Below the pieces are notes generated by a model. That model searched no databases. It was given only the letters and a program-made list of their open reading frames with translations, and was not told the origin of the DNA. The position numbers were made by a program, and so were the translations under genes. This document shows positions 2,735 to 51,911 of a DNA stretch of 64,000 nucleotides, piece after piece (position 1 is the stretch's first letter; each line of letters starts with the position of its first letter). This stretch comes from Kiritimatiellia bacterium (GTDB taxonomy: Bacteria > Verrucomicrobiota > Kiritimatiellia > JAAZAB01), in contig JAXGPF010000008.1 in assembly GCA_040767085.1 (NCBI GenBank), forward strand, positions 64,001-128,000, in the 5' to 3' direction.

Positions 2735-3074
2735 TGCTGAATTGTGAATAATCAGACAAGGCGGCCTGCGGCCACAATCTGCCGTCGCAAAAGCTATGGC
2801 AGACGCAGTCCGGCAGTGGCCGGGCCGCGTCGAAAGTTTGCCGCCCTCCGGTGTGGCGGTGCAAGCCACAAGTGAAAGTGTAGTTTGATCCGGAACCAAT
2901 CCGAAATCATCCGCCCGTCTCTGCCGGACTGGCTGCATCCGGTTGCTGCTGGACAAGCTTTCACATGTCGCCTGCACCTGCACCGTGCCTAAGGTTTATC
3001 ATTCAACCTTCATAATTCATAATTAATTTGAAATGGCACGCCATGGGCGGTAACGCCCCGGCGTGCCATTGCCT

Positions 3075-3635
3075 ATGGACATGACGCCCAATGTGCTCAA
3101 GCGGGCCGGATGCAGCGGCCAATCGCTGGTGGAATCCTGCGTGGTGATCGGGATCATCTGCCTTTTTCTCATGGGCTTGTTTCAGTTGTCCCAGCTTTAC
3201 ATGGCGCGCGAGAGCCTGATGTATGCCGCCGGCCGCGGCGCGCGCGCCCGCACGGTGGGATTCAACGATTTCATGGTGCATAAAACCGTGCGCGTGGCCG
3301 CCATTCCCGCTGCCGGCCGCATGCTGGACCGGCCGGACACCGTCAACAGCCCGTCCGCGCAGCGCAATTTCGAGCGCGCCCGTATTCCGCTCTATCTTGC
3401 CGAGGGACATTATGGGCGTTTGTCCGCCATCCTGGATTATACCAACTGGACGGAACTCGGCCACAGTGTGATTGACCTGGGCGGGCCGCAGTTGGATTGC
3501 CGCGTGCGGCTGGATTTCCCGGTCCAAACCCCGGTCTTCCGGGCCTTTTACCGCGGTGAGACCGTGCCGTTATCCGGCAGCGCGACGCTGGAAAATCATT
3601 ACCCGCTGTATTTGCGGGATATGGATGCGCCGTGA
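3075..3635 (+). CDS. TadE-like pseudopilin
   Basis: G|QSLVE plus hydrophobic helix, then YAAGRGARA. Start uncertain (3063/3075/3081). Confidence 0.75.
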   Translation: MDMTPNVLKRAGCSGQSLVESCVVIGIICLFLMGLFQLSQLYMARESLMYAAGRGARARTVGFNDFMVHKTVRVAAIPAAGRMLDRPDTVNSPSAQRNFERARIPLYLAEGHYGRLSAILDYTNWTELGHSVIDLGGPQLDCRVRLDFPVQTPVFRAFYRGETVPLSGSATLENHYPLYLRDMDAP

Positions 3636-26830: not shown

Positions 26831-30031
<3,201 letters not shown>

Positions 30032-30111
30032 GTTTTGCATCTCCGGGAAAAGGGTTGAATTGGCGGTTAGCATGGCGGGTTCGCCCGGCCAGGTCAAGCC
30101 AAAAAGCACGC

Positions 30112-30275
30112 CAGGGCTGCGTCATTCTCGGCGGCTCGCTCCCGCGCCAGGCGGGACAAGCCAGAGGTTTACCCCGCTTTGAGCGGGGTCTCGCCCTACC
30201 CACGACAAATGCTTGTGAAACGGTAGGGCGAGGTCTCCGTACCGAGCCGTCTGTTCTGAGAATGACGCAGCCCTG
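30112..30275. mobile_element. MITE family A copy 1 (TIR CAGGGCTGCGTCATTCTC, carries GTAG REPs)
   Basis: Perfect 18-bp TIR; flanks AAAAGCACGC / AAAAGCGCGC (9/10 TSD). Confidence 0.85.
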
Positions 30276-30394
30276 AAAAGCGCGCGGCTTTATCGGAATT
30301 TGCGTTTGACTACGGCATGGAGGAATGGCAGCATGCAGGTTTGCGATAACCAAGCCAAGCCCATAAATCCCACTAGCAGAAAACAGGTTGCCCC

Positions 30395-31507
30395 ATGTCT
30401 TTTGAAAGCGGCTCAGTCAGTTTCAGCATGTTTTACGTTCCCGCCCCCCTGCCGGAGACCATCCATCAGCGGTTTGCCAAGGGCGTGCTCGGTCCGATAG
30501 ATAAGCTGCGCGAGGAAGAAATTCACGGCTGGGTTGGGCCCCGGCACCTGCTGGATCGCGAGATCAGCGAGATGACGGCCTGGCCCTCCGGTTTTTTGCG
30601 GCTGACGCTCTCCCAGGCGCAACGGGTCATCCCCGCGTCGCTGCTGCGGGCGGAATGCCGCATCGAGGAAATGGCCTGGATGCAGGCCGAGCACCGCGAT
30701 TATGTCAACCGCCAGCAGAAAAGTGAAATCAGGCAGCGGGTGGTCGAGCGCCTTTTGCCGCAAATGCCGCCCCAGCTCAAGGGGATTGACTTCTGTTACG
30801 ATCCGCGGGCAAAATTCCTGTATGTCACCGCGCTTTCGGAGAAACAGTTCGACGCTTTCCTGATCAACTTCGGCCTGACCACCGGGGTCAAACTGATCCA
30901 GGTTGATCCGGTATCCGCCGCGTGGCATGAGGCGCATTGCCGGGCCGACCAATGGCCCGCGCTGGGATTTGCCGCCGAACAGTGGGCGGATTGCGCCCCC
31001 GGGCGCGAATTCTTAATGTGGCTCTGGTTCATGTCGGAGGCCAAAGGCGGCGAAGTGGACTTGGCTGGCGGCGGGAAATTCGCCGTTATGGTGGAAGGAC
31101 CCCTGCTGTTCGATCAGGCGGAGCAGGGTGAGACGGCGATCCGCAAAGGCGAGCCGATGCTGAGCGCCGAAACCCGCGCCGCGCTTCTCAGCGGCAAAAA
31201 GCTGCGCCGGGCCAAGCTGACCCTGGCCCGCGGCGGCGAGGAGTGCTGGACTTGCTCGTTTGACGCCGATGGTTTCATCTTCCGCAACTTGAAATTGCCC
31301 AAGACCGAGGCGATTGACGCCGTGGGCCGCTTTCAGGAGCGGATGGAAATGCTGGACACCTTCCGGGAAGCCTTCCTCGGCCTCTACGGCACTTTCGCCA
31401 AGCTGCGCGACGACCGCGGCCGTTGCCAAGCGCTGGAGTCGGAAATGAAAAAATGGATGTCCGGACGGCCGTCCCGCAAGCTGGCGGATGTATCCAGCAG
31501 TCAGTGA
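30395..31507 (+). CDS. RdgC-like recombination-associated protein
   Basis: GWV, R.IPASLLR, EIRQRVVERLLPQMPP, GREFLMWLWF; resembles the RdgC family. Confidence 0.6.
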   Translation: MSFESGSVSFSMFYVPAPLPETIHQRFAKGVLGPIDKLREEEIHGWVGPRHLLDREISEMTAWPSGFLRLTLSQAQRVIPASLLRAECRIEEMAWMQAEHRDYVNRQQKSEIRQRVVERLLPQMPPQLKGIDFCYDPRAKFLYVTALSEKQFDAFLINFGLTTGVKLIQVDPVSAAWHEAHCRADQWPALGFAAEQWADCAPGREFLMWLWFMSEAKGGEVDLAGGGKFAVMVEGPLLFDQAEQGETAIRKGEPMLSAETRAALLSGKKLRRAKLTLARGGEECWTCSFDADGFIFRNLKLPKTEAIDAVGRFQERMEMLDTFREAFLGLYGTFAKLRDDRGRCQALESEMKKWMSGRPSRKLADVSSSQ

Positions 31508-31849
31508 TCAGTGATCGGTGATCAGTGAACCTTGAGTTTTGGTCAACAGCATTGACAGGTACACGCTGCGTCTGATAAAGTGCAGTCAGCTTGACTGTTG
31601 GTTTTGGTTCAGTAGCATCCCATAGCAAACCGCTTGATTCTCTCACAAAGCCGCAAAGCCACAAAGAAGACGCGGATAATTTACCACTGAACCGGAAGGA
31701 TTGGCCACCCAAAGTTGACTAGATTGACGCATATAGCGGGCATCTTTCCCTTTCCTGTACGTCAATCTGTATTCACAACCCGTTAAATATCAACGAAAGA
31801 GTTGATGGATTTAACGAAAACGGTGGAAATGTGTCGTGCTATGCATGAC

Positions 31850-31868
31850 GCATAATATTATGTTGGCC
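31850..31868 (+). other. attI-like integron simple site
   Basis: GCATAAT-ATTAT-GTTGGCC (7-5-7 spacing as in attI1). The R box GTTGGCC is complementary to R'' GGCCAAC of the first attC. Confidence 0.6.
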
Positions 31869-31880
31869 CAGATCGAGGAC

Positions 31881-32753
31881 ATGACAAAACGAAAACAGAT
31901 CACCAAGACCGTCCGATTTGAGGTCTTCAAGCGCGACTCATTTGCCTGTCAGTATTGTGGACGGAAGGCTCCTGAAGTCCTGCTTGTGATTGACCACATC
32001 GAGCCAGTGGCAAAGGGTGGTACGAACGACATACTGAACCTCATCACCGCCTGCAAAGACTGCAATGCGGGCAAGTCCGATCGCCAGTTGTCAGACTCCT
32101 CGATTCTCGACAAGCAGCGGCAGCAATTGGAGGACTTGCAGGAGCGGAAAGAGCAGATCGAAATGATGTTCCAGTGGCAGAAGGGCCTACTTGACCTCGA
32201 CGACCAGGTCGTTCAGCAGTTGACGGCGTTCTGGTCAGAGCAGGTTCCCGGATATAGCCTGAACGAGACCGGCATCAAGGGTCTCAAACGGCTTAAGCGG
32301 AAGTTTGAACTTGATGAGATCCTGGCCGCCATGAAGATCGCCGCAGAACAGTACATCGAGTTCAAAGACGGGCAACCGACAAAGGAATCCGTTGAGGAGG
32401 CATGGGGGAAGGTCGGCGGCGTCTGTGCCGTCAGGCGCGAAGAGAAGAAACGTCCCCACATGCAAAAGCTTCGTTACGTGCGGGGTATCCTCCGCAACAG
32501 GCTAAGCTACCTGGACGAAGCACGCGCCCTTCAGTTGCTGGAGGAAGCCTTCGACGCAAGTGCGAGCCTTGAAAATCTGGAGAAGCACGCGAAGTCGCTA
32601 CGAACTTGGACCGAATGGCGCAACGACATTGAGGCGTTTATCACCGAGCACGAAGAGAAACCGGAAGATGACGGAGAGGGCCAACAAACGGTCCGAGGCT
32701 ACTCCGAAACCCGCGCCGCAAACGGCGCGTCTTCCGGATCGCCTCAACCGTAG
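31881..32753 (+). CDS. HNH endonuclease with coiled-coil/helical C-terminus (cassette 1)
   Basis: RFEVFKRDSFACQYCG..IDHIEPVAKGG..NLITACKDCNAGK; the ORF reads through attC1. Confidence 0.9.
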   Translation: MTKRKQITKTVRFEVFKRDSFACQYCGRKAPEVLLVIDHIEPVAKGGTNDILNLITACKDCNAGKSDRQLSDSSILDKQRQQLEDLQERKEQIEMMFQWQKGLLDLDDQVVQQLTAFWSEQVPGYSLNETGIKGLKRLKRKFELDEILAAMKIAAEQYIEFKDGQPTKESVEEAWGKVGGVCAVRREEKKRPHMQKLRYVRGILRNRLSYLDEARALQLLEEAFDASASLENLEKHAKSLRTWTEWRNDIEAFITEHEEKPEDDGEGQQTVRGYSETRAANGASSGSPQP

Positions 32754-32761
32754 CGTTCTGT
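32679..32761 (+). other. attC site 1
   Basis: R'' GGCCAAC ... R' GTTCTGT; L boxes CGGTCCGAGGC / GCCTCAACCG with an extra-helical base; inner stem GCGCCG/CGGCGC. Confidence 0.85.
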
Positions 32762-32788
32762 TGAAAGAAACATAGATGGGAAGCACAA

Positions 32789-34498
32789 ATGGACCGTGAA
32801 CGGATCATCCGCGAACTCGCCAAGTGCCGGCTGAAACCGGATGGACACAGGCGTCAGTACACGATAGCCGGAAAGTTGGGACAGGGAGGGAATGGCGTCA
32901 CGTTCGTCGTTCATGTTGGCCGGCGGGAGCTTGTGGCAAAGATATATGTCCCTCCGGACAGCCGGGATCTCGACAATGCCGCCTTCAAGCGATTCACCCG
33001 CGAGATTGAACTCTCCAGTCGGACTCACCATCCCTTTGTCGTCCCGGTTGCGGGAACTGGCAACATCGCGGTGGGCGCTTATACGTTCCCTTTTTATCTG
33101 ATGCCCAAAGCGAAGGGCACACTTCGCAGTCTCATCCCCTCAGCGTTCACGCTTGACGGTCTCGGCTTCAGGCTCCGTACCTTTACGCAAGTCGTAAGCG
33201 GAGTCTCCTATCTGCACCACATCGGCATCTTTCACCGGGACTTGAAACCAGAGAATATTCTCCTGTCCGATAACGGCCTTCCGATGGTGGCCGACCTCGG
33301 CATTGCCCACGTTGCGCCCTCTTTCGTCGAATGGAGCAAGCTTACCCTCCCAAAAGACCATTTGATGAACTGGGATTACTACGCACCCGAACAGAGAGAT
33401 GGTGACGCTACCAAGGTCGATCATCGCGCCGATATCTATGCCTTGGGCCTAATCATGTATGAACTTATGACTGGCGTTTCCCCGTCACGCCCAAACCTCC
33501 CGGAATTGTACAGCTTTGACGTTCGACTCGCGCGGTTGGATAGCATCTTTGGAAAGATGACGGCCCATTATCCTGAGAAACGCTATCAGACTCTTGATGT
33601 ACTCCAGGACGAGTTGACATGGACACTGATTGCCTTGGGAATTCCAACGGAGGCGCCTTCTTCTGATGAGGCAGACAAACGGAGCCTGGTCAGGCTACTG
33701 CGCAGCACCAATGCCGCTAATCGTGCCCGCGCACAGGAGATTGTTCGGCGCCTAGCAGACAAGGCATTGCCCGAGCTTCACGAGATGACCGGCGACACGC
33801 GCGTGGACGTTGCCCTATCCGCGTACAAACTTCTTGGAAATCTTGTCCACAAGGAATCATTGCCGTATTTGTTGGCAGGATTGTACCCGCGACGCTCGGC
33901 GCAGAAGCCCAGATTTGTTACTGGCGAGGCAGCTGCAGAGGCCCTGCGCAACTACCCCGTTGAGGACAGACTGGCGACACTTAGGGCGATTAAGGACTTG
34001 GTTCTCGCCAGACACATCGGCCTCATCATAGAAGGTATTCCGGCACAAGATTCCTACCCACTCGCATCCCGACTGTACGAGTCTAAGCTGTTCTACGACG
34101 ACTGGAGTGAGGAATCAGGCCTCGCCTTCTTACTCCGTCTTGACCAGAATGAGGCTTGGCCGCTTGTCGAGCGCAAACTGGCAAGCGGCTCAACCGTTTA
34201 CTCCTTTACCGTCTTTCGAGACTTCTTCCCCAATGTGAATTCCGACCGACAGAAGCTCCTTATTGACTACATGCTCAATCGCGATAGCGATCTCAGCTCA
34301 TGGGAGCTTCCCAGGCTTCTGGATGCCATTGCGGCATCTTTCGTCCCCTCGCAATTTGCCTCGGAAGCACTATCACGACTCAAAGATGTTGCACAGCGGC
34401 GAATCCGAAAGTGGGATGAGCGGGAAGCATTTGTTCGCAAAGTGGAGGAGCTAGAGGTGAAAACGATCGCTCCTGCAAAGAGCCCAAAGAAATCATGA
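32789..34498 (+). CDS. Ser/Thr protein kinase with a helical (HEAT-like) C-terminal region (cassette 2)
   Basis: LGQGGNG, VAK, HRDLKPENIL, ADLGIA, YYAPEQ, DIYALG. Confidence 0.9.
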   Translation: MDRERIIRELAKCRLKPDGHRRQYTIAGKLGQGGNGVTFVVHVGRRELVAKIYVPPDSRDLDNAAFKRFTREIELSSRTHHPFVVPVAGTGNIAVGAYTFPFYLMPKAKGTLRSLIPSAFTLDGLGFRLRTFTQVVSGVSYLHHIGIFHRDLKPENILLSDNGLPMVADLGIAHVAPSFVEWSKLTLPKDHLMNWDYYAPEQRDGDATKVDHRADIYALGLIMYELMTGVSPSRPNLPELYSFDVRLARLDSIFGKMTAHYPEKRYQTLDVLQDELTWTLIALGIPTEAPSSDEADKRSLVRLLRSTNAANRARAQEIVRRLADKALPELHEMTGDTRVDVALSAYKLLGNLVHKESLPYLLAGLYPRRSAQKPRFVTGEAAAEALRNYPVEDRLATLRAIKDLVLARHIGLIIEGIPAQDSYPLASRLYESKLFYDDWSEESGLAFLLRLDQNEAWPLVERKLASGSTVYSFTVFRDFFPNVNSDRQKLLIDYMLNRDSDLSSWELPRLLDAIAASFVPSQFASEALSRLKDVAQRRIRKWDEREAFVRKVEELEVKTIAPAKSPKKS

Positions 34499-34569
34499 GC
34501 AGAACAATCGGCTTCACTCTTACGGTTGCCCCGGGGCGGATCAACCGAAGGTGAGCCGTAACGTTCGGC
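34499..34569 (+). other. attC site 2
   Basis: R'' GCAGAAC right after the stop ... R' GTTCGGC; CGGCTTCAC / GTGAGCCG with an extra T; inner stem CGGTTG/CAACCG. Confidence 0.88.
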
Positions 34570-34578
34570 AGTAGAGAG

Positions 34579-35226
34579 ATGAAGGCAATAATCCATAGGG
34601 AACTATTGCTCCGTCCGCGTACTGGATACGCAATGGATGCCGTCCAAGCCATTGCCGACTTTTGTGCGCAGTCAGAAGACTACACCTATCTGCGAAAAGA
34701 AACGGACGAGTACTGCAGGCACATCAATGCAGATGCCTGCATGATTGCGGATCGATCCTCCAAAGTCTTCCCCGCGCTAGCCTTTGCGTCGTCTGACGGT
34801 GCTGTGCTCCAGGTTGTGAACATTGTTCCCGGCAGCGTTTCCGAAATCGGAATAGCGGACTACAACATGATACTTGACCGCTTCACCAAGGCATTCGCAA
34901 TATTTTGCGGGGCAAAACGGGTTAAGATGACTATAACACAGACATCGGACTCACTGACCCTCGAGTCGGCTATTCCGGGGAGAAAGACCCGCGACTTCTT
35001 CCAGCGTTTCCTCAATCTGCATCCGACGAGTTACCACCCATCTGACATCGAGCGGCTTGATGTCTTCATCTGCGCTGCTTCAAGATACCACTCTGGCGGC
35101 TTCAACACACATCGGCTCCGCAGGTATTTGATGGAGGTTTTGGAATGGAAAGAAAAGGACGCATCCTGGTGTTGTGACCGAATTGATGCCGGACTGGACA
35201 TTCTGAAAGTAAACAGGAAATTCTAG
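34579..35226 (+). CDS. Hypothetical protein (cassette 3)
   Basis: 215-aa ORF between R' GTTCGGC and the matching R'' GCCGAAC at 35226. Confidence 0.75.
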   Translation: MKAIIHRELLLRPRTGYAMDAVQAIADFCAQSEDYTYLRKETDEYCRHINADACMIADRSSKVFPALAFASSDGAVLQVVNIVPGSVSEIGIADYNMILDRFTKAFAIFCGAKRVKMTITQTSDSLTLESAIPGRKTRDFFQRFLNLHPTSYHPSDIERLDVFICAASRYHSGGFNTHRLRRYLMEVLEWKEKDASWCCDRIDAGLDILKVNRKF

Positions 35227-35302
35227 CCGAACAAACGTAAGCGTCCGGTGGAGCGCCCCCTATGCAAACACTCCGGACGTGGCAAACTGCTTTGGGTTAA
35301 AT
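35226..35302 (+). other. Degenerate or disrupted attC site 3
   Basis: R'' GCCGAAC overlaps the stop; inner stem CGTCCGG/CCGGACG; L boxes pair poorly; possible R' GTTAAAT at 35296. Confidence 0.45.
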
Positions 35303-35308
35303 TATGTA

Positions 35309-35697
35309 GGCGTGGGGTCGGACCGCGGCAAGTTGTGGGGGCGTGGGGGTCGGACCGCGGCAAGTTGTTGTTTGATAGGTGGATAGCCCGATATTATGGT
35401 GAAAAAACGCCTTAAAGGTGTTTTTTGGCGGGCTTTTTGTGTTATAAGCACCTGTAGGCCGGGAAGGATTTGTAAATGAAATGGCCAAAACAATTATGAA
35501 CCGGAGGAAATTGGCGATAGAGCAAGAGCCGATTGCTGGTGAATCGGAAGCGTATATTCTAAGGGAGCAGCCCATTGGCTATGGTAATGCTTAATGTTTA
35601 TTTTGGTAATGAAAAAACGGCGCTAAGGGCCTTTAAAGTATCTGAAATATCTTTAAAGCATTGGTTTTTAGCATATTGCCGAGGTCCGACCCTGTGG
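35309..35697 (+). mobile_element. RAYT-element derivatives: 31-bp left-end stub (35309) plus an internally deleted copy (35340-35697)
   Basis: The left end GGCGTGGGGTCGGACCGCGGCAAG occurs twice. At ~35454 it joins sequence near-identical to 37617-37860 (gene 3' end and right end ...TTGCCGAGGTCCGACCCTGTGG). Confidence 0.88.
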
Positions 35698-35738
35698 TGC
35701 GCACGGGAACCGTGTCCAGCGAAACCAGGAGAAACGCG

Positions 35739-36038
35739 ATGAATATCGAAATCATGCGAGCTTTCTTTGGGTGGTGTACCGTCATCAACGGTGCGTTTCT
35801 GCTTCTAGCATTCTTGTTGTGCGCGAAGGCGAGCGACTGGGTGTACAGGATGCACAGCAGGTGGTTCCCCATCAAAAGGGAGGCATTAACATTGACGATG
35901 TATTGCTTCATCGGAGGGATGAAGATTATCTTTATTATGCTAAACCTTGTGCCATATTTGGCGCCATATTTGGCGCTTGTCATTCTGGCGGGGGCGTGGG
36001 GTCGGACCGCGGCAAGATGTTGTTTGATAGGTGGATAG
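35739..36038 (+). CDS. Small membrane protein, DUF6868-like; C-terminus fused to an element left end
   Basis: FFGWCTVIN...HSRWF...GGMKI...NLVPYLA; AGGAG RBS; 12-bp duplication at 35951-74; element begins at 35993. Confidence 0.7.
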   Translation: MNIEIMRAFFGWCTVINGAFLLLAFLLCAKASDWVYRMHSRWFPIKREALTLTMYCFIGGMKIIFIMLNLVPYLAPYLALVILAGAWGRTAARCCLIGG

Positions 36039-36156
36039 CCCGATATTATGGTAAAAAAACGCCCTTAAAGGTGTTTTTTGGCAGGCTTTTTGTGTTATAA
36101 GCACTTATATTCGTATCATGCCGAGAAAAAATCGCTATTTCATGTGTGGTCATTTA
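35993..36156 (+). mobile_element. Truncated RAYT element (left end plus first 13 codons)
   Basis: Near-identical to 36892-37055. Confidence 0.88.
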
Positions 36157-36213
36157 GCTTGGGGAAACTCTTAACCAGATATTCCAGCGCATGGCCGGTC
36201 CGCGCTGCGTGCG

Positions 36214-36290
36214 GCCCAACCATGCACTGGACCGTCAATGGTCCGCACACACGCAGTGTGCGGCGGCCCGCCGCCAGCGCCCCGTTCGGC
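36214..36290 (+). other. attC site 4
   Basis: R'' GCCCAAC ... R' GTTCGGC; GCACTGG/CCAGCGC; inner stem CCGCACAC/GTGTGCGG. Confidence 0.7.
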
Positions 36291-36315
36291 CAGAAGGCCA
36301 GAAGGGAGAGGGGAG

Positions 36316-36702
36316 ATGAGAAGGATAGTCGTGGCAATGCTGGTGTTTGCGGTGGGCACGATGATCGCAGTGTCACACCCCGGTGGGCTTGATGCAAACG
36401 GCGGCCACTACAACCGAAAGACGGGCGAATATCACTATCACCGACAACCTGCGGCAAACCCGCAGCCGCCTGCGCGATTAACTCCGTCTGCATCGCAGTC
36501 CGTCTCGACAAACAAGACGCAGACGATAGAGAAGTCGTTTTGGCTCAACACGTCCTCAGGCGTCAGGCACAACAAAGGATGCCGTTGGTTCGGGAAGACG
36601 CAAGGCGGTCGCTACTGCGGGCCAAATGAGGGGCGAGCGTGCGGGCAATGTGGTCGGCGTGGGGGTCGGACCGCGGCAAGTTGTTGTTTGATAGTAGGAT
36701 AG
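36316..36702 (+). CDS. Exported YHYH-domain protein with a C-terminal Cys/His module (cassette)
   Basis: Signal peptide; HPGGLDANGGH..GEYHYH; RHNKGCRW..C..CGQCG; the end reads into the element starting at 36656. Confidence 0.8.
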   Translation: MRRIVVAMLVFAVGTMIAVSHPGGLDANGGHYNRKTGEYHYHRQPAANPQPPARLTPSASQSVSTNKTQTIEKSFWLNTSSGVRHNKGCRWFGKTQGGRYCGPNEGRACGQCGRRGGRTAASCCLIVG

Positions 36703-36891
36703 CCAGATATTATGGTAAAAATACGCCCTTAAAGGTGTTTTTTGGCCGGCTTTTTGTGTTATAAGCACTTATATTCGTATCATGCCAAGAAAAAACCGGT
36801 ATTTCATGTGTGGTCATTTATGGCACTTGACCCATAGGTGTCACAACCGTGATTTTTTGCTGAAATTCGGTAAGGACCGTGATGCTTACCG
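36656..36891 (+). mobile_element. Truncated RAYT element (left end plus ~36 codons)
   Basis: Near-identical to 36892-37126; abuts the full copy. Confidence 0.88.
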
Positions 36892-37860
36892 GGCGTGGGG
36901 CCGGACCGCGGCAAGATGTTATATGACAGGTAGATAGCCCGATATTATAATTAAAAAACACTCTTAAAGATGTTTTTTGGCGGGTTTTTTGTGTTATAAA
37001 TACTTATATTCGTATCATGCCAAGAAAAAACCGATATTTCGTGTGTGGTCATTTATGGCACTTGACCCATAGGTGTCACAACCGTGATTTTTTGCTGAAA
37101 TTCGGTAAGGACCGTGATGCTTACCGCAACTTGCTCCGAGCGCGGCTACAAGGTTCTGGGGTTGATTTATACGGTTATTGCCTTACTGGCAACCATGTTC
37201 ATCTCTTGGTGCATAGCGATGCCGGCCTGGATATACCTGCTCTAATAAAGTCAGTGGCCGGTGAATTTGCCCAAGCGTATAATCGGCGCAAAAGGCGCAC
37301 GGGCGCTTTTTGGGGAGACCGGTACCATGCTACGCTGGTTGATAGCGGAAAATATTTGTGGCGTTGTCTGCAATATATTGATCTGAACATGGTGCGTGCC
37401 GGGCGTGTGACGCATCCTGCGGATTGGCCATGGTGCGGATATCATGAATTGGTGGGGGAACGCAAGCGTTACTGTTTAATAAACAGGGATGGATTACGAG
37501 CGGCGTTAAATTTTTCTTCAATTGAGAGTTTTAGCGATGAATATCGGGCAGGCATTGTTGCGCGGTTGGCGGAGCAAAACCTGCTGCGGGAGCCCTGTTG
37601 GACAGAGGTCTTGGCCGTAGGCCGGGAAGGATTTGTAAATGAAATGGCCAAAACAATTATGAACCGGCGGAAATTGGCGATAGAGCAAGAGCCGATTGCT
37701 GGCGAATCGGAAGCGTATATTCTAAGGGAGCAGTCCATTGGCTATGGGAATGCTTAATGCTTGTTTTGGTAATGAAAAAACGGCGCTAAGGGCCTTTAAA
37801 GCATCTGAAATATCTTTAAAGCATTGATTTTTAGCATATTGCCGAGGTCCGACCCTGTGG
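36892..37860 (+). mobile_element. Full-length inverted-repeat-bounded RAYT-like (HUH Y1) element
   Basis: Left GGG(T/C)CGGACCGCGGCAA versus right TTGCCGAGGTCCGACCC (about 16/17 inverted, using the family consensus), enclosing one Y1 gene. Confidence 0.85.
37017..37757 (+). CDS. REP-associated tyrosine transposase-like HUH endonuclease (Y1_Tnp)
   Basis: MPRKNR..HLTHRCHNR, YCLTGNHVHLL (HUH), YNRRKRRTGAFWGDRY, YIDLNMVRAG. Confidence 0.9.
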   Translation: MPRKNRYFVCGHLWHLTHRCHNRDFLLKFGKDRDAYRNLLRARLQGSGVDLYGYCLTGNHVHLLVHSDAGLDIPALIKSVAGEFAQAYNRRKRRTGAFWGDRYHATLVDSGKYLWRCLQYIDLNMVRAGRVTHPADWPWCGYHELVGERKRYCLINRDGLRAALNFSSIESFSDEYRAGIVARLAEQNLLREPCWTEVLAVGREGFVNEMAKTIMNRRKLAIEQEPIAGESEAYILREQSIGYGNA

Positions 37861-38010
37861 CCGTGTCGTCCGACGGCATGACGATCCACTGTCTCAACGG
37901 TTTGCCGTGTCGCTGTGCGAGTGGGCGGAGACACAGGCAGGAGAGAAAAACGCGATTGATCCCCGTCCGTTGCTCGTGTAATCTATGCTTAGCAAAAGGG
38001 AGATAATGTT

Positions 38011-38199
38011 ATGCCAACCGTCATGAAGAAAGAATCAGCACACAAAATCATCGACCGCATGCCTCAGCAGGCGACATGGGATGACCTTATACACGAAATT
38101 TACGTTCACGAGGCGATCGAACGAGGGCTAGCCGATAGCAAGGCCGGAAGGACCAAAGAAGTTAAAGAAGTCCGTGCCAAATACGGCTTGCCGATATGA
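38011..38199 (+). CDS. Putative antitoxin
   Basis: 62 aa (TWDDLIHEIYV..IERGLAD..GR); ATGA-coupled to a RelE/ParE toxin. Confidence 0.75.
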   Translation: MPTVMKKESAHKIIDRMPQQATWDDLIHEIYVHEAIERGLADSKAGRTKEVKEVRAKYGLPI

Positions 38200-38538
38200 G
38201 AGTTCATTGGACAGACACGGCTCAATCCCATCGGCGCCATCCACGCATATATTGCCCAAGACTCCGCCGAGTACGCCATCTACACGATAGATCGCCTGAC
38301 GCGACGCTCTCAGCAAATTGCCGACTTTCCTCTTTCGGGTCGTCGTGTGCCGGAATATGAAATGGACCAAATTCGAGAGGTAATCGAAGCTCATTACCGG
38401 ATCATCTATTACATTAAATCAGACCAGATTGACGTTTTGGCTATCATTCATGAGGCAAGAAATATCCTGGCCGATTGCCAAGAAAACAACATAGCCGAAC
38501 CAGATTTTCCAGCGGATGGCGACCAGCGCCACCGCTGA
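38196..38538 (+). pseudogene. RelE/ParE-family toxin, frameshifted near 38232
   Basis: MRVHWTDTAQSH, then GAIHAYIAQDS..FPLSGRRVPE..IREVIEAHYRIIY..VLAIIHEAR in another frame. Confidence 0.8.
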
Positions 38539-38552
38539 AAATTATGTTCGGC
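38494..38552 (+). other. attC site 5 (end of array)
   Basis: R'' GCCGAAC ... R' GTTCGGC; ATTTTCCAGCGG / CCGCTGAAAAT with an extra C; inner stem TGGCG/CGCCA; 59 bp. Confidence 0.9.
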
Positions 38553-38559
38553 GATTATT

Positions 38560-41500
38560 TTAGTCTCCAACCTTGCCCGTTCCCCGCCCATAGATCAGGT
38601 TGTAAACCACCGGGATCACCAGCAAGGTGAAGATGGTGGAGACGAATAAGCCGAAGATGATGGACCAGGCCAGGCCGCTGAAAATCGGATCGAGGGTGAT
38701 CGGCCAGGCGCCCAGCAGCGTGGTGCCGGCGGTCAGGAAAATCGGGCGGAACCGCGTGGCGCCGGATTCCAGGATGGCCTCGCGCAACGAACGCCCCGCC
38801 GCCGTGTTGACGCGGATGAAGTCAATCAGGATGATGGCGTTGCGCTGGACGATGCCGCCCAGGGCGATCATGCCGATCATGGCGGTGGCGGTGAAAAACA
38901 CGGGAGTGTCGAAACCGCCCACCGGGCGGTTCACCAGCAGGTTCAACAGCCAGAAACCCGGCATGATGCCGATCAGCGTCAGCGGGATGGACATCATGAT
39001 GACCAGCGGCAGCAGGTAGGAGCTGGTTTCGTAAACCAGCAGGACGTAAATGGCCAGGAGCGCCACGGCGAAGGCGATGCCCAGGTCGCGGAAGACATCC
39101 ACCGTGATCTTCCATTCCCCTTCACCGGCCCAGTCCGCCCTGAGACCCGCCGGCAGCGGATTGGCTTTCAGCCATTGCTGCATGGCCAGCACTGCCTCCG
39201 CCGGGCCGCGGCCCGCCATCTCGGCCGTGACGTACACCACCCGCTCCTGGTTTTTATGCATGATGGACTTGTCCTCCACCTGCTCCTCGAACCGGCCCAG
39301 TTCGCCCAGTTGGACAAATTGGCCCTGGCGGCCCTTGATGGGCAGGGTGGCCAGCAGGGCGGTGTCGGAACGCTTGTCGCGGGGCAGCCGCAGCACGAGC
39401 GGCAGTTCGTTCTGTTCGGACGGGGTATGAACCGTGCCGACCATCTGGCCGTCCAGCGCCAGCCGCAGCACCTGGGCGGCGTCCGCCGCGGCGATGCCGC
39501 TGCGTCCGGCGAGATCGCGGTCAACATGGAAAAACCATTTCTGCTGGTTGGTTTCGACCGAGTCGTCCACTTCGACGACTCCCGGCTCCTGTCGCAACCG
39601 CGCGGCCACCTGGCGGGCGCCGGCGATCAATTCGTCGTATTGCTGGTGCGGCTGGCCGTAGATTTCCGCCACCACGGTCGCGAGCACCGGCGGGCCGGGC
39701 GGAGCCTCCACGAGCTTGACCTGCGCGCCATGCCGTTCAGCGATGGCGGCGATGTCATTGCGGATGCGCAGGATGATATCGTGGCTGGATTGCGCCCGGC
39801 GCTGGCGCGGCAGCAAGTTGACGCGGATATCCCCGAGGTTGGGCGCTTGGCGCAGGTAATAGTGCCGGACCAGTCCGTTGAAGTCCATCGGCGAAGGCGC
39901 GCCCAGGGTCGTGGTGAAGTCCACCACTTCCGGTACGCCGCGCAGGTAATCCTCTGCGTCGCGCGCCAGGGCGTCGGTCATTTCCAGCGGGGCGGATTCG
40001 GGCAGGTCCAGCACGAGCTGGAATTCGTTTTTATTGTCGAAGGGCAGCATTTTCAGGGGCACGCGGCCGGTGGCGGCCAGCAGCAGCGCGCCGGCGAACA
40101 GCGCGGCCATCACCGCCAGCAGCAGCCAGGCGGCCCGGCGCGAATCCACGAACGGGGCGGCCAGCCGGCTATAAACCGCGTAGGTGCGGGTGGTCCGCAC
40201 ATCGTAAGGCTTGGCATTGTCCGCCGGGGCGCGCAGCAGCTTGTTGGCCAGCCATGGCGCCAGGGCGAACGCCACCAGCATGGAACTGATCATCGTCAGC
40301 GGCACGTTGAGGGCCATCGGGCGCATGTAGGGGCCCATCATGCCGCTGATGAAAAACATCGGGATGAACGAGACGATGATCGCCAGCGTGGCCAGCACGA
40401 TGGGCGGCATCACTTCTTCCATGGCCAGTTGCACGGCCTCCTCGCGGCGGTGGCGTTTCATGGCGAAAAAGCGGTAAATGTTTTCCACGCTGACGATGGG
40501 GTTGTCCACCAGCAAGCCCAACGCCAGGATCAGCGCGAACAGCGTCACGCGGTTGATCGTGTAGCCGAACAGGAAGTTGCACAGGAGCGTCAGGGCGTAG
40601 GTGATCGGGATCGCCAGCCCGACGATCACGCCGACCCGCCAACTCATGGTCAGGGCGATCAGGGCGACGACGGTGAGCATCCCCAGGCCGAGGTTGAGCA
40701 CCAGGTCGTTGACTTTTTCGTTCGCGGTGGCGCCGTAGTCCCGCGTAATGCGGACGGCGACATTGTCCGGGATGGTCCGGCCCTGCAGCGCCCGCAGGGC
40801 GCGTTCCAGTTCCCGCGCCACTTGCACGGCATTGCTGCCCTTCTTCTTGGCCACGGCGATGCTCACCGCGGCCCGGGGCGCGGCGCCGTCCGGCGCCGCG
40901 AACGCCGGGTCGGCCGGCCCATGGTGGAAGCGGGTCAGGGTGCGCGGTTCCGCCGGGCCGTCGGCGATCCGCGCGACGTCCCGCAGGTAAACCGGGCGGC
41001 CGGCATGCAGCCCCACCATCAGGTTGGCGACTTCGCCGGCATCCCGCAGAAACGGCCCGGCCGCGACCGTCGCCACGGCGTTGCCCTGCTCGAACGAGCC
41101 GGCCTGGAGCTGCAGGTTGCCCGCCTGCAGCGCGCCGGCGATTTCGCGGGGGCAGAGGCCGTGCGCCGCGAGTTGTTCCGGATCGAGGTAGACGGTCAAC
41201 TGGCGTTTTTCGCCGCCGTGAATGGTGATGGCGGCGCTGTCGGGCACGTGCTGGAGTTTGCCGACGACTTCCTCGGCGATTCGGTAGAGCGCGTGGGTGT
41301 CGCAACTCCGGCTGTGCAGGGTGGCGGTCAGAATCGGCACGTCGTCAACTTCCACCGGCTTGACCACCCAGCCGGCGATGCCGGGGGTGGCTTTATCCAC
41401 ATTCTGGAAAATCTTGTTGTACAGCTTGATCAGGCTGGCTTCGCGGTCCTCGCCCACGTAAAACCGCACGGTCACCACCGCCATTCCCGGGCGCGAGGTG

Positions 41501-41766
41501 GAATAGACGTATTCCACGCCGTCAATCTGGTACAGCAGGCGTTCCAGGCGCGACGACACCATTTTTTCCACTTCCGCCGCCGATCCGCCCGGATACATCA
41601 CCAGCACGTCGGCCAGCGGGACGACGATTTGCGGCTCCTCTTCGCGGGGGGTCACCATCAGCGCGATGGCGCCGGCCAGCAGGCTGACCAGGATCAGCAG
41701 CACGGCGAAATTGCCGGTGAGGAAGGCCCGCACCAGCCCGCCCATTACAGAGTGTTTGCCGTCCAT
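38560..41766 (-). CDS. RND efflux permease (AcrB/AcrD/AcrF family)
   Basis: 1068 aa; PREEEPQI, LGLLVDN, RFRPIFLT. Confidence 0.93.
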   Translation of the reverse strand: MDGKHSVMGGLVRAFLTGNFAVLLILVSLLAGAIALMVTPREEEPQIVVPLADVLVMYPGGSAAEVEKMVSSRLERLLYQIDGVEYVYSTSRPGMAVVTVRFYVGEDREASLIKLYNKIFQNVDKATPGIAGWVVKPVEVDDVPILTATLHSRSCDTHALYRIAEEVVGKLQHVPDSAAITIHGGEKRQLTVYLDPEQLAAHGLCPREIAGALQAGNLQLQAGSFEQGNAVATVAAGPFLRDAGEVANLMVGLHAGRPVYLRDVARIADGPAEPRTLTRFHHGPADPAFAAPDGAAPRAAVSIAVAKKKGSNAVQVARELERALRALQGRTIPDNVAVRITRDYGATANEKVNDLVLNLGLGMLTVVALIALTMSWRVGVIVGLAIPITYALTLLCNFLFGYTINRVTLFALILALGLLVDNPIVSVENIYRFFAMKRHRREEAVQLAMEEVMPPIVLATLAIIVSFIPMFFISGMMGPYMRPMALNVPLTMISSMLVAFALAPWLANKLLRAPADNAKPYDVRTTRTYAVYSRLAAPFVDSRRAAWLLLAVMAALFAGALLLAATGRVPLKMLPFDNKNEFQLVLDLPESAPLEMTDALARDAEDYLRGVPEVVDFTTTLGAPSPMDFNGLVRHYYLRQAPNLGDIRVNLLPRQRRAQSSHDIILRIRNDIAAIAERHGAQVKLVEAPPGPPVLATVVAEIYGQPHQQYDELIAGARQVAARLRQEPGVVEVDDSVETNQQKWFFHVDRDLAGRSGIAAADAAQVLRLALDGQMVGTVHTPSEQNELPLVLRLPRDKRSDTALLATLPIKGRQGQFVQLGELGRFEEQVEDKSIMHKNQERVVYVTAEMAGRGPAEAVLAMQQWLKANPLPAGLRADWAGEGEWKITVDVFRDLGIAFAVALLAIYVLLVYETSSYLLPLVIMMSIPLTLIGIMPGFWLLNLLVNRPVGGFDTPVFFTATAMIGMIALGGIVQRNAIILIDFIRVNTAAGRSLREAILESGATRFRPIFLTAGTTLLGAWPITLDPIFSGLAWSIIFGLFVSTIFTLLVIPVVYNLIYGRGTGKVGD

Positions 41767-51532: not shown

Positions 51533-51559
51533 TACGCTCCTGCAACGCGGGCGGCGGAG

Positions 51560-51911
51560 CGCAACGCAGTTGCGCCGCTACAGAAGAGGCGGAAATATTC
51601 AGGCCGGCTGTAGTGGCCGAACTGCGTTCGGTATCTGTGTCTGGGTGTAGTAGTCCGGCTTTGTCGGACATGCCGGAACGCAACGCAGTTGCGCCGCTAC
51701 AGAAGAGGCGGAAATATTCAGGCCGGCTGTAGTGGCCGAACTGCGTTTGGTATCTGTGTCCGGGTGTAGTAGTCCGGCTTTGCCGGACATGCCGGAACGC
51801 AACGCAGTTGCGCCGCTACAGAAGAGGCGGAAATATTCAGGCCGGCTGTAGTGGCCGAACTGCGTTCGGTATCTGTGTCCGGGTGTAGCAGTCCGGCTTT
51901 GCCGGACATGT
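51560..51911. repeat. Three tandem 119-bp units built from inverted GTAG-type REP-like sequences (BIME-like)
   Basis: GCAACGCAGT recurs at 51561, 51680 and 51799. Each unit has an AACGCAGTTGCGCCGCTACA / TGTAGTGGCCGAACTGCGTT inverted pair. Confidence 0.88.

Follow-up and report, generated by a model that had tools for sequence, protein, structure and literature searches.

How does one element come to sit at boundary after boundary of an integron cassette array? The question is raised by a 64,000-nt stretch of DNA from a Kiritimatiellia bacterium (contig JAXGPF010000008.1, positions 64,001 to 128,000), referred to here as the window. It corresponds to G000:C27:64001-128000, in other words to part of contig C27 of genome G000, a 4.08-Mb draft in 28 contigs that is 95% complete and has a G+C content of 61%. 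Between carB (26831-30109, minus strand) and a gene for an AcrB-type pump (38560-41766, minus strand) the window carries an island of lower G+C, in which gene cassettes and their attC sites are found together with copies of a small element encoding a transposase, TnpA. The island holds, in order, HNH and kinase/HEAT genes, an attC site, a gene of 215 aa with a broken attC, the cluster of element repeats, a toxin-antitoxin cassette, and a terminal attC. An earlier inspection of the letters alone (the sequence-only reading) had proposed an undescribed HUH element that replaces attC sites. This proposal is partly supported. Judged from its sequence, the element is a TIRtron, a type already described, and it is a new and unusually informative one, with full, miniature, nested, and truncated copies. 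Obligatory targeting of attC is not supported.

Element copies and their transposase

A repeat search found the left-end word of the element five times, at 35309, 35341 (35340), 35993, 36657 (36656), and 36892, and a 244-nt right part twice, at 35454-35697 and 37617-37860 (97% identical). These counts agree with those of the sequence-only reading, five ends on the left and two on the right, and its sorting of the copies into one full, one internally deleted, and three 3'-truncated also stands. All copies lie on the plus strand. The full element (36892..37860) is 969 bp long and has the inverted-repeat termini GGCGTGGGGCCGGACC... and ...GGTCCGACCCTGTGG(CC). The inverted arms delivered by the repeat search measure 17-21 nt, read GGGTCGGACCGCGGCAA and TTGCCGAGGTCCGACCC, are 90-94% complementary, and can be extended to ~27 nt. 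Inside them lies tnpA (37017..37757, plus strand, 246 aa), identified by Pfam Y1_Tnp and by homologue alignment. It is preceded by a promoter-like ATGACA-17-TATAAT (11/12) followed by a hairpin with a T run (36923..36978, plus strand; inverted arms I1-I4 of the repeat search), both of them consensus matches only. The 969-bp element contains no second open reading frame (ORF) and no tnpB.

The remaining four copies are partial. A left-end fragment of ~28 nt (35309..35338, from the repeat search) is stacked before the next copy, which resembles a miniature inverted-repeat transposable element (MITE) because element positions 1-117 are joined to 726-969 (35340..35697, repeat search). This deleted copy folds with both inverted repeats paired (z = -4.9) in an imperfect stem of 16 bp. 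Sequence comparison showed that left-end copy 3 (35993..36157) is cut off after tnpA codon 13. Left-end copy 4 (36656..36891) comprises element positions 1-236, includes a hairpin equivalent to the one 5' of tnpA, and is either interrupted by or fused to the full copy. No target duplication was seen by eye at 35340-35697, as the sequence-only reading had already remarked, nor at a further copy on contig C23. An Rfam scan of 30000-39000 gave no matches at E <= 1.

A chance origin of the repeats is excluded because they extend over 100-240 nt at 86-97% identity. Among the copies, left ends are 86-96% identical and right ends 93-97%. The copies are therefore old, or came in separately. The full copy is not a simple insertion, because excising copies 4 and 5 leaves the adjacent YHYH-domain gene without a stop codon. 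The attC of that gene must then have been lost, presumably by recombination between two co-oriented copies or by an adjacent deletion.

Are the stacked copies real? The joints were checked by comparing 34400-38700 with Logan contigs from four runs of four studies (X1, X4, X5, and X7). One Logan run is possibly the source sample itself, and the same joints are present in at least one other study. Segments of X4 and X7 without contig cover were given no weight. Contigs of X1 matched 35668-36025, 36093-36777, 36862-37031, and 37831-38255 with 0 differences. They spanned the joints from right end 1 through the DUF6868 gene to left end 3, from truncated copy 3 through an attC and the YHYH gene to left end 4, between copies 4 and 5, and from the right end to the toxin-antitoxin leader. 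Contigs from another study, X4, covered 35665-35928, 36280-36694, and 36849-37031, also spanning three of the X1 joints, and contigs of X5 and X7 spanned some of them as well. An assembly artefact behind the stacked copies is unlikely. One X5 contig fuses 35339 directly to 36656, with 39 letters common to both sides. It may represent either a strain that has no DNA between the two left ends or a graph artefact.

The sequence-only reading had called the enzyme RAYT-like, after the tyrosine transposases associated with repetitive extragenic palindromes (REPs), and this was borne out. TnpA matched Pfam Y1_Tnp (PF01797) over residues 14-122 with 44.5 bits against a cut-off of 23 (E 2e-11). In an alignment of 12 homologues, N59-H60-(V)-H62, AFWGDRYH, and Y120 (in YIDLNMVRAG) were invariant, and a C-terminal block, REPxWTE..AVG, was conserved. 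The HUH motif and the tyrosine aligned with the core of E. coli TnpA-REP (4ER8). A search of the PDB with the single TnpA sequence gave no match; a family profile did match, reaching TnpA-REP 4ER8 at 2.3e-6, ISDra2 at 3e-4, and IS608 at 0.035. Against the NCBIfam equivalog model for REP-associated tyrosine transposases (NF047646) the protein scored 69 bits, under the cut-off of 80. No Pfam family besides Y1_Tnp was found at E <= 0.01, and the tail held no DnaA_C, HTH_23, or HTH_28. The Y motif reads YIDLNM, its M125 is invariant in the family alignment, and the W motif is WG. Taken together, these matches place TnpA as a RAYT-like Y1 HUH protein.

A TIRtron among its relatives

TIRtrons have been described as RAYT-like genes, called TIRYTs, between long terminal inverted repeats (TIRs) that share GGGGWSAS, and the TIR units occur singly, as dimers, or in clusters (Di Nocera et al. 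2013, PMC3733652). According to two later surveys, most TIRYTs fall in TnpA-Y1 subclass 2.1 (Quentin et al. 2018, PMC6006769), and RAYT group 1, which corresponds to that subclass, is among the RAYT groups most like an insertion sequence (IS) (Bertels et al. 2017, PMC5581495). The window element shares with TIRtrons the RAYT-like Y1 gene, the long TIRs, and the lack of REPs with a GTAG tag. Its TIR motif, GGGGTCGG, agrees with GGGGWSAS at 7/8 positions, the seventh base being G and not A; some relatives carry GGGGTCTGACCCC. Published cases are mostly treated as low-copy loci, whereas G000 offers a full copy, two MITE-like derivatives (counting one on C23), a nested or fused pair, and copies in an attC cluster. 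Likenesses to subclass 2.1 and RAYT group 1 are the length (246 aa versus a median of 238), the NHVH motif, the absence of GTAG REPs, a C-terminal extension, and the IS-like behaviour that sets this group apart among RAYTs. The element differs in having YIDLNM instead of the class 2 signature Y---NP (PMC6006769), WG instead of W[EQ], and no Pfam helix-turn-helix in the tail.

Other single-strand systems are more distant. The REPtron of E. coli, with its RAYT enzyme TnpA-REP (4ER8), is the best structural-sequence relative, and its gene likewise lies between short palindromes in inverted orientation that increase in number on the spot. However, the window element scores below the NCBIfam cut-off, lacks the GTAG tag, and behaves as a mobile element in its entirety; its ends are not dispersed at high copy number, and the GTAG REPs of G000 are a different sequence. 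IS200/IS605 elements such as IS608 and ISDra2 share the Y1 HUH core, the lack of a target duplication, and, by analogy, the expected single-strand chemistry. Unlike the window element, which has TIRs and no tnpB, they have subterminal hairpins, no TIRs, a defined target of 4-5 nt, and often tnpB. The rolling-circle elements IS91 and ISCR use a Y2 transposase, whereas only Y1_Tnp is found here. The IS1111-attC group and the group IIC-attC introns also use folded or single-stranded DNA at attC sites or beside arrays, but their enzymes (a DEDD transposase and a reverse transcriptase, respectively) are unrelated to TnpA, and no positional rule is evident for the TIRYT family. An IS200/605 element, ISHahl1, lies adjacent to the last attC of a cluster of attC sites lacking an integrase (CALIN), and adjacency is all that was reported of it (PMC7923331). 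Another source sets REP and attC recognition side by side by analogy only (PMC8266576).

The sequence-only reading had known of no described case. That is no longer so for the element, which is a published type, TIRYT/TIRtron; it stands for the setting, as the literature searched yielded no report of an association of RAYT, TIRYT, or HUH enzymes with attC.

How widespread is the family? A scan of genome contigs gave 15 homologue loci, of which the 12 closest (38-85% identity) encode a protein of the ~245-aa type. In all 12 the gene is flanked, on at least one side, by a motif like GGGGTCGGACC or GGTCCGACCCC, with 1 mismatch allowed. These 12 come from metagenome-assembled genomes (MAGs) labelled Lentisphaerae, Omnitrophota, Kiritimatiellae, Verrucomicrobia, Polyangiales, Chitinivibrionales, KSB1, and Eubacteriales. 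Some members have the full mini-palindrome GGGGTCTGACCCC as their core, and the window core GGGGTCGGACC resembles a very short REP unit, apparently a half-degenerate form of such a palindrome. A profile scan of a phylum sample found the family in 90/401 genomes at E <= 1e-20; ~30 of the matches, spread over ~28 genomes, belong to the ~245-aa type. Of 401 genomes of the class, 12 contain the exact TIR word (1 match for the reversed control pattern), which is present 9 times in G000 and at most 3 times in any other. The 9 occurrences in G000, found with the 17-base word with one position free, are all in element copies or wrecks. The exact core GGGTCGGACC is present 18 times in the 4.08 Mb, 10 times in element copies or wrecks and twice in relics on contig C5. 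The idea that GGTCGGACC is a genome-wide REP was dropped, as 11 of its 19 matches (<=2 mismatches to the 17-mer) were in element copies or wrecks. Metagenomes scanned with the 17-nt TIR word gave 83 ends in 80 loci (L072-L151), 8 of the ends with the transposase within 600 nt; this set includes many chance matches in genes and was used for attC only in a crude scan. Non-chance ends without a transposase may include many MITEs or carry other cargo. The word is often extended to GGCAAC..TTGAT and is widespread in soil, sediment, and sludge contigs. Beside the ends at L105 and L129 only the C-terminal domain is encoded. On a Polyangiales contig (L018, 450-1832) a gene for a group II intron reverse transcriptase/maturase stands directly upstream of the TIRYT gene.

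Stacked partial ends, as seen in the window, were found across the family: at L015, L016, L017, L020, L021, L022, L024, L026, L235, L236, L237, L242, L243, L246, L252, and L256, at several metagenome ends, and at both ends of the copy on G000:C23. Since stacking is family-wide, the surplus of left ends is largely a family trait rather than something that attC sites confer. In two genomes, the loci L218 and L219 have identical stacked units before the left end and different flanks, and stacks can therefore travel with the element. Partial units in the stacks of L016, L017, and L235 end right after GGGGTC or GGGGTCG, from which we infer a candidate nick site near these unit ends.

Elsewhere in G000 the element has left other traces. 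A second MITE-like deletion copy lies at C23:155655-156095 between two ordinary genes; among four congeners no empty site for it was found, the left gene alone being conserved. A left end at a contig edge (C18:2-142) abuts a CCCCC-GAAT-GGGGG hairpin. On C5, a solo right-end-like word at 117633-117650, the relic of a related element, has GTTAAGC directly after it, and a MITE-like pair of ~135 nt (121046-121190) starts 4 nt after GGTTCGGT, itself preceded by a hairpin of 14 bp where a small gene of low G+C ends. Element fragments are also present in a congener. The GTAG-tagged REP-like hairpins of G000 form a cluster in the window at 51559-51870 (for example GTAGTGGCCGAACTGCGTTCGGT); their stems, GCCGAAC/GTTCGGC, are identical to the R''/R' boxes of attC sites in the array. 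One such GTAG-REP lies 22 nt from an element end at a congener locus, L068.

A decaying cassette array and its joints

The attC sites were called from z-scores of single-strand folds together with a scan for hairpins with pairing AAC/GTT arms, which yields ~1 false match per 8 kb and misses degenerate sites. A simple genome-wide scan for GCCGAAC...GTTCGGC was swamped by false matches at 61% G+C and was replaced. Two sites fold well, and in both the AAC/GTT boxes follow directly after stop codons. One of them (GCAGAAC...GTTCGGC, 34499..34569, plus strand, z = -4.2, 21 arm pairs) closes the cassette of the HNH gene and the Ser/Thr-kinase/HEAT gene, which were identified from ORFs and profile matches and lie 35 nt apart (31836-34498). 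By its look, this pair followed by a single attC (31836-34569) is a two-gene cassette, possibly a defence pair. The other is the terminal attC (GCCGAAC...GTTCGGC, 59 nt, 38494..38552, plus strand, z = -7.2), and sites similar to it occur in congeners. The broken attC after the 215-aa gene (35226..35308, plus strand) does not fold (z = +0.4). Its R'', GCCGAAC, overlaps the stop codon and its central hairpin is kept, while its 3' arm is missing; its last bases, TAAATTATGTA, resemble the 3' arm and the first R' bases of an attC of the 38494 type. An 18-nt C-terminal remnant of another cassette gene (..AWGNS*) and a chimeric attC share 36158..36290 (plus strand). The 5' arm of the chimera is of the 38494 type, and the remainder shares 91% identity with a long attC of a congener (G320:C38), on a contig that also encodes IntI over the cut-off.

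Is there an integrase to serve these sites? None over the cut-off was found in the 95%-complete G000, the best TIGR02249 match scoring 101 bits against a cut-off of 265. This match is a frame of 113 aa on C23 (~307077-307418; L009 1465-1806), probably the C-terminal remnant of a lost intI. With at least two co-oriented attC sites and no integrase the locus is therefore a CALIN, and the array without integrase that the sequence-only reading had pictured is real. The array is visibly decaying: it contains the chimeric and the broken attC, the gene remnant, and a split toxin frame. The split frame belongs to the antitoxin and ParE-like toxin cassette (38011..38538, plus strand, ORFs and profile matches), whose toxin appears as two overlapping ORFs (38196-38360 and 38347-38538), likely through a frameshift. 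At the left edge of the island (~31600-31710) stands a repeat of ~100 nt with dozens of copies at 80-93% identity in three congeners.

Left end 1 directly follows TAAATTATGTA, at the 3' edge of the broken attC. The DUF6868 gene (35739..35992, plus strand, PF21742 at 7.8e-23) has had its stop codon replaced by left end 3, and its frame runs on to 36038. Where homologues stop at ...LALLIIG*, the frame in the window continues as ...LALVILAG|AWG into the element. A 12-nt tandem duplication at ~35953-35976 (GCCATATTTGGC twice) gives PYLAPYLA near the C-terminus of this protein. The YHYH gene (36316..36655, plus strand, NF033223 at 3e-12) is 83% identical to a congener gene that ends in ...CAGTGTGGCGGATGA, compared with ...CAATGTGGTC|GGCGTGGGGG in the window; read at the joint itself, the ends are TGTGGCGGATGA and TGTGGTC|GGCGTGG, respectively. 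The joint to left end 4 is thus within 1-2 codons of the natural stop. The attC of the congener starts ~50 nt 3' of the YHYH stop, and the window joint therefore lies at the gene end and not at R''. In congener G221 the YHYH gene is a normal cassette between attC sites, beside a tRNA gene (congener cassette in L030). The right ends are followed by leaders of 41 nt (DUF6868) and 150 nt (toxin-antitoxin cassette). In other words, the sequence-only reading had placed the joints correctly: left ends at natural gene ends and just past a degenerate attC, right ends ahead of cassette leaders.

Two candidate rules for these joints failed. A left end at a stop codon is not general (5/56 family ends within 10 nt versus 32/280 controls). 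A match between the 5' flank of the left end and the final letters of the right end, TGTGG or TCTGG, was seen in 3/7 local joints and was absent in L016 and L017; it stands as an unexplained local pattern.

Accumulation or attraction to attC

What brought the element to the cassette boundaries? On balance, and with modest confidence, an IS-like TIRtron has colonised a dying cassette array, nested in itself, and decayed there, with no dedicated attC-replacing reaction required. The 969-bp element, a TIRYT between ~27-bp TIRs, would move as an IS-like unit whose enzyme, on the model of IS608 TnpA and the TnpA-REP of E. coli, may nick and rejoin single-stranded DNA at the ends, and it would bring its own promoter-like site and left-end hairpin. 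It would have entered, at three or more points, an array that had already lost its integrase. The array would be favoured because it is dispensable, hairpin-rich DNA at the 3' ends of genes. One copy would then have lost its interior to become MITE-like, and one full copy would have inserted into another at position 236 or recombined with it there. Deletions, some between copies in the same orientation and some between attC sites, may have removed attC sites and most of one cassette; two left ends that recombine would be expected to yield the 35339-36656 joint of X5. The surplus of left ends may have two causes: short partial units pile up at termini family-wide, like REP clusters beside RAYT genes, and truncated copies retain their left ends.

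The main rival is directed targeting, in which the TIRYT recognises the foot of folded single-stranded hairpins, attC above all. Here the left end would insert either at the 5' foot or slightly beyond R', a few bases to its 3' side, cassette boundaries would be occupied repeatedly, and attC sites would be erased after recombination between copies. Evidence for this comes from the window, where left end 1 follows ..AAATTATGTA, matching the 3' arm and the start of R' of a 38494-type attC, and from the related end on C5 and the left end on C18, each beside the hairpin described above. Further evidence comes from other genomes. L235 (50% identity) is arranged as gene, attC (60 nt), gene, attC (59 nt), with the element adjoining; its left-end stack begins 0 nt after the R' (GTTCGTG) of the second attC and points the same way as the cassettes, and the two sites fold with z = -2.2 and -3.5. 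At L016 (also 50% identity) an attC-like hairpin of 56 nt (z = -7.3) begins 49 nt past the right end. Two Phd/ParE-type cassettes follow, with a solo end between them, and so does a second attC-like site (z = -4.9). L258 has a 61-nt attC-like hairpin (z = -4.7) ~110 nt from the element end. The hosts of all three encode IntI over the cut-off. The 3 or 4 array-side loci, or three attC-side lineages, among ~36 loci are far above a uniform expectation, attC making up an estimated share of well under 0.1% of a genome. On the other hand, most loci are far from attC-like sites. The C23 and C18 loci are not in arrays, the C23 copy being intergenic between ordinary genes; 10/11 annotated homologue loci from other genomes have metabolic or other ordinary neighbours and 1/11 cassette-like ones; and in the crude scan an attC-like hairpin was within ~100 nt of an end in 2 or 3 of the 25 strong phylum loci, with none in 22. 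The YHYH joint is ~50 nt upstream of where the congener attC starts, the joints vary in position relative to attC (after R', at stop codons), the hairpin scan has its rate of false matches, and IS elements pile up in arrays anyway. Integron arrays are known sinks for mobile DNA. Targeting as put forward in the sequence-only reading is therefore not supported as a rule, and two or three further lineages do carry the element beside attC. It remains a tentative proposal, doubtful on present evidence, that TIRYT elements favour folded attC hairpins at their foot, the left end lying 0-6 nt 3' of R'. At L016, a Kiritimatiellae contig, the TIRtron and its two toxin-antitoxin cassettes are flanked by a direct repeat of ~190-250 nt (1-190, 2826-3110) that stems from the 3' part of the adjacent gene.

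Several points weigh against colonisation of a dying array without targeting. At L235 and L016 the element again stands beside attC sites. With two joints falling precisely on stop codons and a third on the 3' border of an attC, the locus is tidier than random insertion and deletion would predict. An empty site was found for no copy, which leaves the exact termini and the target unproven, and the X5 joint, with its 39 shared letters, could be a graph artefact. Other explanations are less probable. That DUF6868 and YHYH are passenger genes moved by the element and not by an integrase, as a composite of two co-oriented copies or after a missed left-end cut, is improbable. DUF6868, with only its 41-nt leader and no 3' spacer, is indeed bounded precisely by a right end on one side and a left end on the other, the outer boundaries of the block lie inside one older cassette (TTAAAT... 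at 35294, ...TCTTAAC at 36169), and the copies differ by 4-14%, as if they were separate arrivals; but in the congener YHYH forms an ordinary cassette that has attC sites of its own and lacks the element, no second locus has a gene-plus-end unit, and no inspected family member has a passenger between two copies. It is very unlikely that an excised single-stranded circle whose paired TIRs mimic a folded attC was inserted at R' by IntI like a cassette. The paired repeats form the 16-bp imperfect stem, and at L235, whose genome encodes IntI, the element immediately follows R' where the array ends distally; however, the window element ends without AAC/GTT core boxes, its right ends show no G|TT hybrid joint, G000 has an intI remnant only, and most copies are outside arrays. 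Collapsed or mis-joined repeats in the MAG are hardly credible. The draft is in 28 contigs and the repeats are longer than the usual k-mer, but each joint is bridged with 0 differences in runs of at least two studies, and the copies differ by 4-14%.

What does the locus mean for the family? In the accessible parts of the published accounts, TIRYT/TIRtron loci are known only from genome surveys and carry no report of movement. The full copy, deletion derivatives, nested or fused pair, and unrelated sites seen here suggest, at the level of sequence, that the element behaves as an IS. If it does not target attC, the locus is an ordinary build-up of mobile DNA in an array that is dispensable and decaying. 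What deserves a proper survey is the position beside attC seen in three lineages. If targeting proves true, TIRYT would be a third, enzymatically unrelated class of attC-seeking elements after IS1111-attC and the group IIC-attC introns, and recombination between its copies would fuse or erase cassettes, even in arrays that have no integrase.

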